This document shows positions 34,514-37,793 of a DNA stretch of 64,000 nt, piece after piece (position 1 is the stretch's first letter; the number at the start of each line of letters is the position of its first letter). Made by a program: the position numbers and the translations under genes. A model generated the notes under the pieces. It saw only the letters and a list, made by a program, of their open reading frames with translations. It was not told the DNA's origin and did not search any database. The DNA is from Alphaproteobacteria bacterium (GTDB taxonomy: Bacteria; Pseudomonadota; Alphaproteobacteria; UBA828): assembly GCA_965220745.1 (NCBI GenBank), contig CBDCQT010000013.1, positions 32,001-96,000 on the forward strand, read 5' to 3'.

Positions 34514-35446
34514 CTATTCCCCCGCGTCGCGGAGGTGCGCGGCGAGGCCCATGAGGCGGCGGTCGCGCCATGCCTGGCGCCCGGTGTGGTCCTCCATGGG
34601 CAACCGCTCCCGGCGCTCCTGGTGCGCCTTGAAAACCACCGCGTCGGACCAGGGCTGGGCCGGCTCCCCCTGCTTCACGAACTCGTAGAAGCCCTCGCCG
34701 AGGCGCGCGCAGAAGTCGGCGAGGCCGCCCGGCGCGTTCAGGTCGATGGTCTCGAACGGCCCGATGAATGACCAGCGACGGCCGAGGCCGGCCGAGATCG
34801 TCGTGTCGATATCCTTCGCCGTGGCGTAGCCGCCTTCCAGCAGACGGAAGGCTTCCCACAAGAGCGCCGCCTGCAGCCGGTTGGCGATGAAGCCGTCGAT
34901 CTCGCGCGTGAGCCTGACCGGCTCCATGCCGGCGGCTTCCATCAGCGCCCAGCAGCGCGTGACCGTCTCTTCCTCGGTCCAGGGCGCCGGCACGATCTCG
35001 ACGAGCGGGATCACATAGGGCGGGTTGATGGGATGCGCGATCAGGCAGCGCGGGGCTATGCCCAACCCCTCGGTGAAGGTCGACGCGGGAATCCCTGAGG
35101 ACGACGAGCCCACGACCAGCGCCGGCCCGGCGATGCCGTCGATCTGCTCGTACACCGCGCGCTTCACGTCGGCGCGCTCGAACACGCTCTCTTGTGCGTA
35201 GGCCGCGCCGTCGAGGGCATCGGCGAGCCCGGTAGAAATGGAGATGCGCGCCCGCGCGGCCGCAGGATCGTCGATCAGCCCGTGGCCTTGGAGGGCCTCG
35301 AGGTTGGTCTCGATGCGCGCGAGCGCGGCCTCGCACTGGCCTTCCGTCCCGTCGTAGAGCGCGACCCGGTGGCCCGCGCGGGCGAAGACGATCGCCCAGG
35401 CGCTGCCGACCAGGCCGGCACCGACAATCGCGATCTTGTCTGGCAT
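34514..35446 (-). CDS. 3-hydroxyacyl-CoA dehydrogenase family (lambda-crystallin/carnitine dehydrogenase-like)
   Basis: VGAGLVG..WA, QESVFE, SSSSG, HPINPP...PLVE, GFIANRLQ. Confidence 0.9.
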   Translation of the reverse strand: MPDKIAIVGAGLVGSAWAIVFARAGHRVALYDGTEGQCEAALARIETNLEALQGHGLIDDPAAARARISISTGLADALDGAAYAQESVFERADVKRAVYEQIDGIAGPALVVGSSSSGIPASTFTEGLGIAPRCLIAHPINPPYVIPLVEIVPAPWTEEETVTRCWALMEAAGMEPVRLTREIDGFIANRLQAALLWEAFRLLEGGYATAKDIDTTISAGLGRRWSFIGPFETIDLNAPGGLADFCARLGEGFYEFVKQGEPAQPWSDAVVFKAHQERRERLPMEDHTGRQAWRDRRLMGLAAHLRDAGE

Positions 35447-35458
35447 GGCGGTCTCTCC

Positions 35459-36508
35459 TCAGGCCGCCTCGGCGGCGATGCTGTTGAAGGCGGCGAGCGA
35501 GCGCTCGATGGCCTCCCGCGGCAGATCGTCGACGATGAAGACGATGTGCGAGCGGCGGTCGCCGCTCGGCCAGGCGCGGAGATGGATCGGCGGGTGGACC
35601 ACGTGCTGCACGCCGTTGACCACCACCGGCGCGTCCGTGCCTGCCACGTTGAGGATGCCCTTCACGCGCAGCACCTTCTCGCCGTGGGTGTGGAGCAGCA
35701 TGGTCAGCCAGATGCCGAAGGCGGTCCAGTCCAGCGCGCCCTCGAAGCTCAGCGTGAAGGAATGGATGTGCTCGTCGTGCCGCGAGACATCGCGGCCGGG
35801 CCCGTGGGCGTGGTCTCCCGCCGCGTCCTTCGCCGCTTCGTCCGCGAGCCAGCGGCGCACCTCGGCGCCCTTGGTCCGCGCATCGTAGACATCGGCGCGC
35901 AGCACGCGCGGCACGTCCACCGCGCCGTTCACGGCGGTGATCTGGTCGGCCGAGCGGTTGAGTCGCGTGAGCTTCGCGCGCAGCCGGGCGAGGGTGTCGG
36001 CGTCGGCGATGTCCGGCTTGGTCAGCACGATCCGGTCCGCGACCGTCGCCTGCTTCACCGATTCCGGGTGGCGCTTGAGCTGCCGGAGCCCGTTCACGCC
36101 GTCCACCGTCGTGATCACTGCGCCCAGGCGGTAGTGGTGCTTCAGCACCGTATCGGCGCTCAGCGTGAACAGGATCGGTGCCGGGTCCGCGAGCCCCGTG
36201 GTCTCGACGATGAGCCGACGGTAAGGCGGAATCTCGCCGCGGGCACGCCGGCTGTTGAGGTCGATGATCGCGTCCTTCAGGTCGCCCCGGATGGTGCAGC
36301 AGAGGCAGCCGCTCTCCAGCAGCACCGTGTTCTCGTCCATCGCCTCGACCAGGAAGTGGTCGAGCCCCACGGCGCCGAACTCGTTCACCAGCACCGCAGC
36401 ATCGGCGAGGGAAGGGTGGCGCAACATATGATTGAGCAGCGTGGTCTTGCCGCTGCCGAGGAAGCCGGTGACGACGATCACCGGGGTCAGCCGCGCGTAG
36501 GTCGCCAT
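35459..36508 (-). CDS. COG0523/CobW family G3E metallochaperone GTPase
   Basis: GFLGSGKTT, NEFG, GCLCC, ETTG, TKPD, LRVKG. Confidence 0.95.
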   Translation of the reverse strand: MATYARLTPVIVVTGFLGSGKTTLLNHMLRHPSLADAAVLVNEFGAVGLDHFLVEAMDENTVLLESGCLCCTIRGDLKDAIIDLNSRRARGEIPPYRRLIVETTGLADPAPILFTLSADTVLKHHYRLGAVITTVDGVNGLRQLKRHPESVKQATVADRIVLTKPDIADADTLARLRAKLTRLNRSADQITAVNGAVDVPRVLRADVYDARTKGAEVRRWLADEAAKDAAGDHAHGPGRDVSRHDEHIHSFTLSFEGALDWTAFGIWLTMLLHTHGEKVLRVKGILNVAGTDAPVVVNGVQHVVHPPIHLRAWPSGDRRSHIVFIVDDLPREAIERSLAAFNSIAAEAA

Positions 36509-36513
36509 CGCCC

Positions 36514-36876
36514 TTACGCTCGCCGCCGGGCGGCGCGGCCCCCGGCGGCTGGCGCTGCCTCGAGCCGTTCCACCAGGGCGGGGTCGAGCGGGTCGGGCGC
36601 GTACCCGACCAGACCCTCGACTGCGGCCCAGAGCGTAGGCAGGTCCGTCGCCATCTCGGTCGCGCCGCCGCTCCGCCTATGCACCATGTATTGCGCGCCG
36701 GCCCAGTCGTCGGCGGTGCAGCCGTAGGCGCCCAGCACGCGGTTCAGCAGCGCGAGGCGGCGCGTGCGCTCCAGGTGCCGCTCCCGGCCGGTCGGCGCCG
36801 CGTCGCTCCGGCCCGCATCGGTGCCTGCCTCAGTCCAGTGCGGGCCGTCGGTGAGGACGCCGCAGAGCGCGCACAT
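36514..36876 (-). CDS. Small N-terminal CxxC hypothetical protein
   Basis: MCALCGVL...HWTEAGTDAGR...PDPLDPAL; tightly spaced in the operon; paralog at 14602-14955. Confidence 0.85.
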   Translation of the reverse strand: MCALCGVLTDGPHWTEAGTDAGRSDAAPTGRERHLERTRRLALLNRVLGAYGCTADDWAGAQYMVHRRSGGATEMATDLPTLWAAVEGLVGYAPDPLDPALVERLEAAPAAGGRAARRRA

Positions 36877-36890
36877 CGCGGGCGAGCGGC

Positions 36891-37793
36891 CTACTTCTTC
36901 CGTTGCCGCTTGCCCTTGAACGGACGGCGCTTGATGAAGTCGTCGGCGATCTCGTCGAAGGTCGCCCAGATCACCCCCTCATGGTTGGCGATGTGGGCGA
37001 TGATCCGCTCCAGCATCAGCAGTGTCTGCGGCCGGCCGGAGATGTCGGGGTGGATGGTGAGCGTGTAGACCGCGTAGTCCATCTCCCGATAGACCCAGTC
37101 GAACTGATCGCGCCACCAGTCCTCGATGTCGCGCGGGTTGGTCCAGCCGCCGGAGTTCGGCACCTTCTTCATGAACATCATCGGCGGCAGATCGTCGAGG
37201 TACCAGCTGCCGGGGATCTGCACGATGGGGAATGTGGTGCCCTTCTTCATCGGCTTCATCCACGACTTCGCCGGCTTGGAATAGTCGATCAACGTCCACT
37301 CCTCGTTGATCCGCATCCAGTAGGGCTCGAAGTCATTGTGCATCTGGCTGTGGTCGTACTTGATGCCGCGCTCCATCAGCAGGTGCGGCGTGTACGCGCT
37401 CATCTCCCACCAGGGTGCGACATAGCCCGTGGGCGCCTTGCCGGCGAGCTTGGTGACCAGATCCAGGGACTTGTCGAGGACGTCCGCCTCCTGCTCGGGC
37501 GTCATGGCGATCGGGTTCTCGTGGGTGTAGCCGTGCATCCCGATCTCGTGCCCCGCCGCCGCGACCGCCTTCATCTCCCTGGGGAAGGTCTCGATCGAAT
37601 GGCCGGGAATGAACCAGCTGGTCTGAATGCCCACCCGGTCGAACAGCTTGAGCATGCGGGGGGTTCCGACCTCGGAGGCGAACACGCCCCGCGAGATGTC
37701 GCTCGGCGAATCGCCGCCGGCATAGGAGCCGATCTGCCCTGCCACCGAATCGACGTCCACGCCGATCCCCACGAAGATTTCCTTCTTGGCCAT
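36891..37793 (-). CDS. Polysaccharide deacetylase family (NodB fold, PgdA/PuuE-like) hydrolase
   Basis: [37 protein letters not shown]. Confidence 0.93.

Follow-up and report, generated by a model that had tools for sequence, protein, structure and literature searches.

A small MCxxC protein as constant companion of a COG0523 GTPase lineage and possible helper in metal delivery to a NodB-fold hydrolase

Introduction

GTPases of the COG0523 group are found throughout life, and very few of them have a proven client. To our knowledge, no separate small partner protein accompanies the GTPases of the Nha3 and ZNG1 systems. Nha3 is dedicated to an Fe-type nitrile hydratase encoded nearby, according to the accessible part of Haas et al. 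(2009). The same study (BMC Genomics 10:470, Additional file 3) distinguishes a COG0523 'subgroup 7', with pRL120796, Veis_1001, PFL_1367 and PSPTO4198 among its examples, in which the GTPase gene clusters with genes for a cyclic imide hydrolase (CIH, the SEED/Haas 2009 label), a GatA amidase, a PotABCD importer and FabG dehydrogenases. The link between this GTPase and a hydrolase is thus already published, and the small gene that concerns us here is unnamed in the available text of that work.

On the enzyme side, Helicobacter pylori HP0310 (HpPgdA) was published as a peptidoglycan deacetylase; the paper reporting its structure saw no such activity in vitro, describing a buried site for small molecules and no activity on peptidoglycan-type substrates (PMC3084791), and esterase and chitin activities have been reported in another paper. 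Its gene lies in the series HP0309-HP0312, which encodes an amidohydrolase, HP0310 itself, the hypothetical protein HP0311 and the GTP-binding/cobW protein HP0312 (Shaik et al., 2011, PMC3084791, Figure S1). A metabolic parallel is offered by the nicotinate pathway of Aspergillus nidulans, where, as set out in the accessible sections of PMC9304392, the dehydrogenase HxnW makes a cyclic imide, the imidase HxnM opens it and the amidase HxnN frees ammonia. HxnM is a CIH/HpPgdA-like protein, genetically assigned as a cyclic imidase (same source).

A compact block and its neighbours

The block considered here lies on the minus strand of the window (the whole stretch of 64,000 nucleotides that was analysed). 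As noticed in the first-pass annotation, it consists of four co-oriented, tightly spaced reading frames, which encode, 5' to 3' on that strand, a hydrolase, a small protein, a COG0523 GTPase and a dehydrogenase. Their products have 300, 120, 349 and 310 amino acids, and the gaps measure 14, 5 and 12 nt. The last of these (34514..35446, 310 aa) is an NAD-dependent enzyme of the 3-hydroxyacyl-CoA dehydrogenase family with 3HCDH_N and 3HCDH domains (PF02737, E 9e-45; NF004783, 411 bits for a cutoff of 347), and among 30 loci from the same bacterial family its gene comes after that of the GTPase in 28.

Upstream of the hydrolase, across a gap of 307 nt, the same strand carries an amidase-signature enzyme (38101..39504; PF01425, E 1e-89), a candidate for the half-amidase of the pathway; of the 80 loci anchored on the hydrolase, 38 have an amidase homolog no more than 3.5 kb from it. 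There follow, still on the minus strand, a VOC/glyoxalase-fold protein of the ArsI/CadI type (39559..40110, with the start chosen by the ORF tool, the true one being perhaps further inside; NF041414, 121 bits for a cutoff of 116) and the genes of an ABC importer (40223..43433; PF00528 twice and PF13416), namely two permeases (40223-41098 and 41095-41973, PF00528 each) and a solute-binding protein (42141-43433, PF13416). Scanning positions 34000-38300 for promoters and terminators yielded a single promoter-like site, which is weak and does not belong to the block, and no terminator; the operon boundaries are those suggested by the intergenic gaps.

The hydrolase, a candidate client

The first gene of the block (36891..37793, minus strand, 300 aa) encodes an amidohydrolase of the NodB fold, CE4 family (Polysacc_deac_1, PF01522, E 4e-15). 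Its residues 3-293 align with residues 35-325 of PDB 3QBU/4LY4, the H. pylori enzyme, at E 1e-134, which makes it by sequence an ortholog of HP0310/HpPgdA in the cyclic-imide-hydrolase branch of the fold. The name of deacetylase given to it at first sight therefore needs amending: the metal-dependent NodB fold stands, and the protein is of the HP0310/CIH type, not a typical polysaccharide deacetylase. The metal ligands D15, H87 and H91 and the catalytic D13 and H248 are all invariant in nine orthologs and correspond, with an offset of one, to Asp12, Asp14, His86, His90 and His247 of HP0310, for which the roles have been described (PMC3084791). With a catalytic aspartate at residue 13 there is no room for a signal peptide.

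The enzyme is probably a cyclic imide hydrolase (EC 3.5.2.16) and, as such, a candidate for receiving metal. The 'cyclic imide' label of its substrate comes from homologs and from an annotation label, the homologs being HxnM and the Pseudomonas putida CIH AAY98498, both as given in the accessible part of PMC9304392; a search of the literature on cyclic imides and half-amidases brought up chemistry papers only. We also considered a metal-independent allantoinase/imidase of the PuuE type, which has Glu-His-Trp where metal-dependent enzymes have Asp-His-His, and rejected it: with 79.5 bits the protein stays below the cutoff of 424.6, and it retains the metal triad. It speaks against a maturation module that HP0310 made alone in Escherichia coli already contained a metal ion (PMC3084791), so that accessory genes are not strictly required for some metal to enter the site.

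The GTPase

The third gene (35459..36508, minus strand, 349 aa) encodes a G3E GTPase with a cobW nucleotide-binding domain (PF02492, E 1e-41) and a CobW_C domain (PF07683, E 2e-25). The Walker A motif GxxGxGK[ST] takes the form GFLGSGKTT at residues 15-23. Among 41 orthologs there is no variation at G15, G18, G20 or K21, nor at C68, C70 and C71 of the motif GCLCCT. This CxCC in switch I is the metal motif of COG0523 in the part of Haas et al. (2009) at hand. In the C-terminal domain R281 and K283 never vary, and at least 90% of sequences have G284, in agreement with the RxKG motif defined in the available text of PMC13001444. Having Walker A, CxCC and a CobW_C domain with RxKG, the protein is by its sequence a COG0523 GTPase. 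Five histidines, at 233, 235, 244, 247 and 249 as counted on the translation, populate its linker; the CLCC site and the His-containing linker can indeed be read in the translation, as can the MCxxC start of the preceding small protein, all three of which had been pointed out beforehand. Loci with the same layout are found in Pseudomonas syringae and other Pseudomonas, with GTPases 42-50% identical.

A small protein without a name

The second gene (36514..36876, minus strand, 120 aa) encodes a protein that begins MCALCGVLTDGPHW and that can be divided into an N-terminal M-C-x-x-C-G arm, W14 and a folded core made of a helix, a three-strand sheet and further helices, carrying W83 and the motif D95-P96-L97. 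Its family comprises 621 clusters at 50% identity (E<=1e-3). The sequence starts exactly with M-C-x-x-C in 131 of 149 family representatives and in 70 of 72 open reading frames, and 64 of those 131 representatives have no further cysteine. Across 50 diverse members the invariant residues are C2, C5, W14, G71, W83 and L97; in the N-terminal part C2, C5 and W14 are the only ones, and no other cysteine of the family is invariant. Of the 'HW' that had first caught the eye, the tryptophan (W14) is thus invariant and the histidine is not, some members having D, Q, L or S in place of His13. An AlphaFold2 model reaches a pLDDT of 82 overall and about 53 in the segment of C2 and C5, which suggests that the cysteine pair sits on a flexible N-terminal arm. 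It weighs against a metal role that just two cysteines are invariant, that His13 varies and that C2 and C5 are modelled with low confidence.

Pfam and NCBIfam returned no match to this protein, a PDB profile search (best E 0.15) and Foldseek (best E 0.21) gave nothing usable, and the ESM Atlas contributed only unnamed 'hypothetical protein' clusters. None of Pfam, NCBIfam, the PDB profile search, Foldseek and VIA-align showed a match to UreE or HypA, a distant kinship with which is possible. A likeness to CyaY/frataxin was discarded, the best Z of a wide VIA-align search (4.3) being tied with unrelated rows and below noise. Forms fused to the GTPase are rare, and the two that we inspected, a 407-aa ORF of a metagenome bin (L090, lacking the DPL motif) and the 391-aa P0098 with its cobW domain, are likely frameshift artefacts and were not retained as Rosetta-stone evidence. 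Three long proteins of the family, P0243 (268 aa), P0184 (275 aa) and P0099 (1008 aa), have extensions in which no Pfam domain was found. The start MC[GSA]LCG resembles the nitrile hydratase metal motif CSLCSC quoted in the accessible part of Haas et al. (2009), so far a coincidence between short motifs.

A constant partner of the GTPase

Linkage was counted in whole-genome profile searches and in one contig scan anchored on the hydrolase. Within the same bacterial family the arrangement of the block was found again at 28 loci out of 30; in further loci of the class COG0523 comes directly after the small gene in 28 of 28, with a CIH ortholog also before it in 25. The expectation that the small family would co-occur with COG0523 and the hydrolase is borne out across phyla: 72 of the 80 hydrolase-anchored loci, drawn from Proteobacteria, Actinomycetes, Bacillota, Chloroflexia and others, have the small gene, and wherever both genes are visible it directly precedes COG0523, in the same orientation (48/48), including three loci in which the pair is divergent from the hydrolase. 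In five extended loci of Pseudomonas, Acinetobacter, Paraburkholderia, Pantoea and Halomonas, the small gene and the hydrolase are 3 kb apart, with MFS and SDR genes in between, and COG0523 still follows the small gene directly in all five. A distant NodB-fold paralog (27-29% identity) is likewise found with the pair, and a NodB-fold enzyme is the sole constant metalloenzyme of these neighbourhoods. Such an arrangement is far beyond chance: the small protein is the constant partner of this GTPase lineage, the most constant of its neighbours. A very improbable explanation is that the protein has an unrelated role (as a transcription factor, thiol-disulfide protein or subunit of a pathway enzyme) and is merely co-inherited with the operon. 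This would fit the lack of a recognisable fold or family and the existence of orphan paralogs, but not the place directly before the GTPase gene that it keeps in three different operon layouts and in several phyla, nor a complex prediction that passed when all controls stayed at 0.00.

Two hydrolase-bearing genomes (G449 and G450, completeness not given) yielded no small gene. The divergence of the small protein was uninformative, correlating with that of the GTPase at r 0.19 and of the hydrolase at r -0.11 (n 44, two close relatives removed).

Complex modelling had been proposed as a check, and the prediction just mentioned, for small protein and GTPase, came out in favour of binding: all three runs gave an ipSAE of 0.73, the best of three controls reaching 0.00. 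Among solved complexes 116 out of 157 attain that value, and among mismatched pairs 2 out of 215, counts that are rough since our own alignments were used. The runs have at least 61% of contacts in common, with a partner pLDDT of at least 71. The predicted interface brings together the invariant residues of the small protein and residues 261-275 and 329-348 of the GTPase, where W261, F264 and W267 are invariant or nearly so in the lineage; most of the genome's other COG0523 paralogs have different residues at these positions. C2 and C5 are outside the confident contacts. The model supports docking of the core of the small protein (W14, W83 and DPL) on the helical face of the GTPase C-terminal domain.

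Copies on their own

The window holds a second paralog of the small protein (14638..14973, minus strand; tblastn 6e-30, VCAFC...HW...DPLDP), which had been announced and is 50% identical to the first. The match spans 14638-14955 and a likely GTG start at 14973 gives VCAFC. Its neighbours are a gene of the endonuclease/exonuclease/phosphatase family and one for a secreted-looking protein; neither a GTPase nor a NodB-fold enzyme is encoded beside it. In related genomes, 16 of 20 extra small copies examined have no adjacent GTPase. Orphan copies of this kind, that at 14638..14973 included, weigh against the reading of the small protein and the GTPase as one module. In favour of a link with the hydrolase, eight orphan copies lie within 3 kb of a CIH paralog, again with no GTPase.

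What might the small protein do?

We somewhat favour the following scheme. The operon would be a widespread catabolic route whose substrate, a small nitrogen compound of the cyclic imide or lactam-like kind, would be imported by the transporter; the dehydrogenase and the HP0310/CIH-type metal-dependent hydrolase would make and open the ring, and the amidase would free ammonia. The hydrolase would be matured by a dedicated module of two proteins, the COG0523 GTPase and the small MCxxCG protein, the folded core of the latter riding on the C-terminal domain of the former while its arm, with C2 and C5, would hold or relay a metal ion, or lead the GTPase towards the apo-hydrolase. The Asp-His-His site would then receive its correct metal through the hydrolysis of GTP. 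The small protein probably helps to load the hydrolase with metal, and we infer for it a role of metal donor or adaptor, by analogy with the maturation carried out by UreE with UreG and by HypA with HypB.

A bolder version, which we hold only tentatively, sees in the MCxxCG protein an accessory subunit dedicated to a COG0523 GTPase, and the first of its kind, none of this type being described in the literature searched, as the first-pass annotation had surmised. Riding on the C-terminal domain, it would use its cysteines as a 'hook' to select a metal, possibly not zinc, and to hand it to the buried Asp-His-His site, perhaps with the adjacent His-rich linker. If this were true, chaperone, co-chaperone and a client of solved structure would together form a complete system of three parts, and it could explain why HP0310 obtained from E. 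coli alone was inactive on every substrate tried.

Somewhat less probable is a pure adaptor or specificity subunit bridging the GTPase C-terminal domain and the apo-hydrolase, never itself a metal carrier, with a cysteine pair that is structural or touches the client. The confident interface is placed by the model in the folded core and not in the cysteine arm, the orphans beside CIH paralogs devoid of a GTPase suggest a direct link to the enzyme, and the COG0523 C-terminal domain is regarded as variable and specificity-bearing (Haas et al., 2009, and the Rocchio 2026 preprint, in their accessible parts). The most conserved feature of the family, two cysteines at the extreme N terminus, is nevertheless hard to explain without a chemical role.

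It is rather unlikely that the small protein regulates the GTPase cycle, gating the change between open and closed states by which the RxKG arginine finger reaches GTP, perhaps depending on thiol redox state or metal. Predicted docking on the C-terminal domain, by the strand of R281-x-K283-G284, would suit such a function, as would the 'self-gapping' role of that domain described in the available text of a 2026 preprint (PMC13001444); yet the predicted contacts listed exclude 281-284, and orphans next to hydrolase paralogs with no GTPase are left unexplained.

Whichever way the maturation module would operate, the operon brings together a GTPase lineage and an obvious candidate for its client, one whose crystal structure is known. 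It adds a previously unnamed third component, with a signature that can be mutated (C2, C5, W14, W83, DPL) and a predicted docking site. Together these make COG0523 metal delivery directly testable. They bear on the disputed function of HP0310 in H. pylori and on the making of active recombinant imidases; the related metal-independent PuuE-like imidases serve for pregabalin intermediates.

Relation to described systems

The broadest likeness is to UreE-UreG and HypA-HypB, where a small metal-handling protein and a G3E GTPase load one enzyme, as we propose by analogy here. The metal site of HypA lies at its extreme N terminus. The small protein showed no similarity of sequence or fold to UreE or HypA in our searches, and its partner GTPase belongs to the COG0523 branch, with predicted docking on a C-terminal domain that is absent from UreG and HypB (Haas et al., 2009, accessible part). 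Nha3 with nitrile hydratase and ZNG1 with METAP1 are known or proposed COG0523-client pairs, described in the text available without a separate small partner.

Closer to our locus, H. pylori displays the same order of hydrolase, hypothetical protein and cobW, with HP0311 likened to the small protein by position and annotation alone. Like subgroup 7, to which it is assigned by neighbourhood, the window has a CIH, an amidase, a Pot-type transporter and a dehydrogenase beside the GTPase, its ABC importer genes match the PotB/C/D neighbours given there, and the Pseudomonas loci match the subgroup's gene set; the supplement text of Haas et al. (2009) does not mention a small gene lying between those for CIH and COG0523, nor does it assign a function to the cluster. 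Finally, the Hxn system is eukaryotic, and the accessible part of PMC9304392 mentions no COG0523 protein or small partner; the bacterial operons have the same three enzyme types as HxnW, HxnM and HxnN.

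The gene block and its surroundings

Four minus-strand open reading frames fill positions 34514-37793, with gaps of 14, 5 and 12 nt. In order of transcription they code for a 300-residue hydrolase (36891-37793; Polysacc_deac_1 in Pfam and NCBIfam), a 120-residue small protein (36514-36876; beginning MCALCGVLTDGPHW) that has zero matches in these two libraries, a 349-residue COG0523 GTPase with cobW and CobW_C domains (35459-36508), and a 310-residue dehydrogenase of the 3-hydroxyacyl-CoA-dehydrogenase family (34514-35446; NF004783, 411 bits against a cutoff of 347). The GTPase displays GSGKT and GCLCCT motifs and a His-containing linker. 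The first-pass annotation had this block right in every detail, including the gaps, the start of the small protein, the GTPase motifs and the existence of a paralogous small gene.

Upstream of the hydrolase gene, on the same strand, come an amidase gene (38101-39504), one for a VOC-fold protein, and transporter genes that code for two ABC permeases and a binding protein; the dehydrogenase gene lies downstream. The VOC-fold protein of this catabolic operon (39559-40110, minus strand) scores above the NCBIfam cutoff for ArsI/CadI heavy-metal resistance (121 vs 116 bits). Just upstream, beyond the transporter genes, the region 43653-48343 looks like a nitrogen-heterocycle breakdown island, with hydantoinase B (43653-45473, minus), an isochorismatase-family protein (45506-46219, plus) and hydantoinase A (46286-48343, plus). 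G+C content falls to 0.54 at 33500-34500, against about 0.70 in the operon, and this dip holds a 149-residue frame (34001-34450, plus) that has a hydrophobic N terminus and matches nothing in Pfam.

A probable hydrolase of cyclic-imide type

Residues 3-293 of the hydrolase match Helicobacter pylori HP0310 (HpPgdA; PDB 3QBU/4LY4) at E 1e-134, the next best hits being far weaker. HP0310 is a cytoplasmic tetramer with a buried pocket suited to a small molecule; its metal ion, possibly zinc, is bound by Asp14, His86 and His90, with Asp12 and His247 as catalytic residues (PMC3084791). The equivalent residues here (D13, D15, H87, H91 and H248) are invariant in nine orthologs. In the same paper, HP0310 was inactive on GlcNAc, chitotriose, acetyl-polyamines, acetyl-dipeptides and allantoin (PMC3084791); esterase and chitin activities have been reported for it elsewhere (PMC3688963). 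The PuuE allantoinase model gave 79.5 bits for the window hydrolase, against a cutoff of 424.6, and was rejected. In fungal nicotinate breakdown, the homolog HxnM, 64% identical to the cyclic imide hydrolase of Pseudomonas putida and with 3QBU as closest structure, was assigned as a cyclic imidase opening 3-hydroxypiperidine-2,6-dione, after the dehydrogenase HxnW and before the amidase HxnN (PMC9304392). The same three types of enzymes surround the window hydrolase gene. Because of the 3QBU match, the conserved residues, the homology to HxnM and these shared neighbours, we read the protein as a metal-dependent hydrolase of cyclic-imide type, cyclic imides being its candidate substrate class. 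The earlier label 'deacetylase' is better replaced by this name.

An apparently undescribed family of small proteins

A word-indexed search with the small protein gave 95 clusters, none of them named beyond 'hypothetical', and a profile run against the full set of 1.84 billion representatives returned 621 at E<=1e-3 (416 at E<=1e-10), nearly all of 90-125 residues. Among 50 diverse members C2, C5, W14, G71, W83 and L97 are invariant, M1, G6, R37, L48, D95 and P96 are conserved in at least 90%, and His13 varies. The cysteine pair sits at the extreme N terminus: M-C-x-x-C stands at the predicted start codon in 70 of the 72 frames adjoining hydrolase genes and in 131 of 149 stored representatives, 64 of these 131 having no further cysteine; the other 18 mostly have GTG, TTG or mis-called starts. 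The AlphaFold2 model (mean pLDDT 82) is of low confidence in residues 1-30 and confident in residues 30-110, which fold as one helix, a sheet of three strands and two further helices; no convincing match to this fold was found among solved structures. As far as our literature and database searches reach, the family is undescribed.

Conserved linkage to the GTPase and the hydrolase

The association of the GTPase with the hydrolase has been in print since 2009, since COG0523 subgroup 7 (pRL120796, Veis_1001, PFL_1367, PSPTO4198) was reported to co-localize with a GatA-type amidase, PotD, PotA/B/C, cyclic imide hydrolase (CIH) and FabG (Haas et al., 2009, Additional file 3). The GTPase-CIH cluster is absent from the main text of that work, and the small gene is unnamed in the subgroup 7 text of the additional file. 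Likewise, the Figure S1 text of PMC3084791 lists HP0309 (amidohydrolase), HP0310, HP0311 (hypothetical protein) and HP0312 (GTP-binding/cobW protein), and the paper does not discuss HP0311. Literature outside subscription journals on COG0523 in connection with deacetylases, cyclic imides or imidases, subgroup 7, and networks or neighbourhoods, searched along with passages of a 2026 preprint (PMC13001444), gave no account of a small protein working with a COG0523 GTPase. Of the association proposed at first pass, therefore, the GTPase-enzyme link was already published, and the small partner is what we did not find described.

The small gene is present in 43 of 44 genomes of the organism's own family, usually in two copies, and the order hydrolase, small gene, GTPase, dehydrogenase is kept in 28 of 30 loci there. 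Across the class it occurs in 33 of 401 sampled genomes; in 28 new loci the GTPase gene always follows it, and a hydrolase ortholog precedes it in 25, the other three comprising one cut by a contig end, one with a distant NodB-fold paralog and one without any. An independent, hydrolase-anchored sample, the best 80 of 553 confirmed loci (best-scoring rather than random, with kin that are not independent), spans Alpha-, Beta-, Gamma- and Deltaproteobacteria, Actinomycetes, Bacillota and Chloroflexia, and has the small gene within 3.5 kb of the hydrolase gene in 72. Of these 72, 45 show hydrolase, small gene and GTPase on one strand, three have the small gene-GTPase pair divergent from the hydrolase, and 24 end within 258 bases past the small gene, short of any GTPase; when five of the latter were extended, the GTPase gene appeared 12-27 bases further on in all five. 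From the eight loci lacking a nearby small gene, five genomes were searched: the gene lies some 5-6 kb away from the hydrolase in two and at another place in the genome in one, and in the remaining two it was not found. Loci of the Pseudomonas type read GntR regulator | amidase, hydrolase, MFS transporter, a pair of SDR dehydrogenases, small gene, GTPase. The small gene thus stays directly 5' of the GTPase gene through three operon layouts, and the only constant metalloenzyme near the pair is the NodB-fold enzyme. Given the spread over phyla, and despite kinship and best-scoring sampling, chance or mere common descent is unlikely to account for this synteny; the suspected link of the small family to COG0523 and hydrolase is borne out.

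Copies outside the pattern

Some 22 kb from the operon copy, the window has a paralogous small gene (14638-14973, minus strand; 50% identical, hit span 14638-14955), with a likely GTG start at 14973 giving VCAFC. It is flanked by an endonuclease/exonuclease/phosphatase-family gene and by the gene of a secreted-looking protein without family assignment. Several genomes of the genus likewise carry two copies at this distance on a single contig. Among 20 additional copies from related genomes, the GTPase is adjacent in only four; nine have a hydrolase paralog of 56-64% identity no more than 3 kb away (eight of them without GTPase), three are beside a 29% identical NodB-fold paralog together with a GTPase, and eight have neither hydrolase paralog nor GTPase nearby. 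In the genome of the window, a second hydrolase (57% identical; contig C13, 262179-263066, in an ABC-transporter/2OG-oxygenase/Rieske cluster) and a second GTPase (63% identical; contig C5, 374707-375732, behind an FdhD gene) are scattered in unrelated contexts, the equivalent three genes being together in one relative (L150). Adjacency is therefore not obligatory, and the copies beside hydrolase paralogs hint at a direct tie between small protein and hydrolase. The window's own genome has eleven cobW-domain matches, among them two of identical score on contigs C7 and C12, from a gene duplication, and one at C7:146210-146416 that is truncated.

In a third type of module (loci L151, L163, L164 and L057) a 27-29% identical NodB-fold gene precedes the small gene and GTPase, with a dehydrogenase too in L151; judging from such gene orders, the chaperone pair may serve more than one clade of NodB-fold enzymes. 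In an uncultured actinomycete bin, one 407-residue frame (L090:2233-3456, minus strand) spans both a small protein that lacks the DPL motif and the GTPase; an indel introduced during assembly is the probable cause, a true fusion the less likely one.

A predicted complex and its possible role

Complex prediction, with alignments of 41 rows for the GTPase and 50 for the small protein, scored 0.73 in each of three runs, against 0.00 in three controls (two with the partner replaced, one with the GTPase replaced). Of 157 solved complexes 116 attained this mark, as did 2 of 215 mismatched pairs; with custom alignments, these counts apply only roughly here. At least 61% of contacts were common to the runs, with a partner pLDDT of at least 71. 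Confident contacts join residues 14-16, 18-19, 36-47, 79-87 and 93-108 of the small protein to 261-275, 306-307 and 329-348 of the GTPase, so that the invariant W14, W83 and D95-P96-L97 would lie against the CobW_C domain at its first helix (W261, F264, W267) and its last. The contacted GTPase residues are invariant or nearly so in their own lineage, and most other COG0523 paralogs in the genome have different ones.

No solved complex like this one is known to us, which makes success from a memorized structure seem unlikely. The model supports binding rather than showing it; the evidence as a whole supports the small protein as a partner dedicated to this COG0523 lineage, one that probably binds the C-terminal domain of the GTPase. 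Both computational checks proposed at first pass, linkage across genomes and complex prediction, came out positive, and the adaptor or metal-donor role first suggested for the CxxC protein is partly supported, its handling of metal being putative.

C2 and C5 fall outside the confident contacts and W14 inside; the His-rich linker of the GTPase ends just before residue 261, and the contact of W14 would therefore place the cysteine arm near that linker. In the reading we favour, the cysteine pair would bind or relay the metal; with cysteine at position 2, the initiator methionine may be removed, leaving an N-terminal cysteine. A metal-free adaptor would equally make the predicted contacts, and is unlikely beside a cysteine pair that is invariant. 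Somewhat less likely again is a regulator of the GTPase's open/closed switch, as described in PMC13001444, a role that contacts with the CobW_C domain would suit but that does not account for copies beside hydrolase paralogs without a GTPase. That the small gene is an unrelated passenger, as its stray copies might suggest, is very improbable in view of its constant place before the GTPase gene.

Under the metal-relay reading, the trio would spend GTP to supply the hydrolase with metal at its buried Asp-His-His site. HP0310 expressed alone in Escherichia coli already held a metal ion (PMC3084791), which counts against an essential role of the accessory genes; its inactivity on all substrates tried leaves room for loading with the wrong metal or, equally, for the wrong substrates. 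If the proposal is true, the small protein would be, as far as our searches reach, the first accessory subunit described for any COG0523 GTPase, and the loading trio would parallel the accessory pairs UreE-UreG and HypA-HypB.
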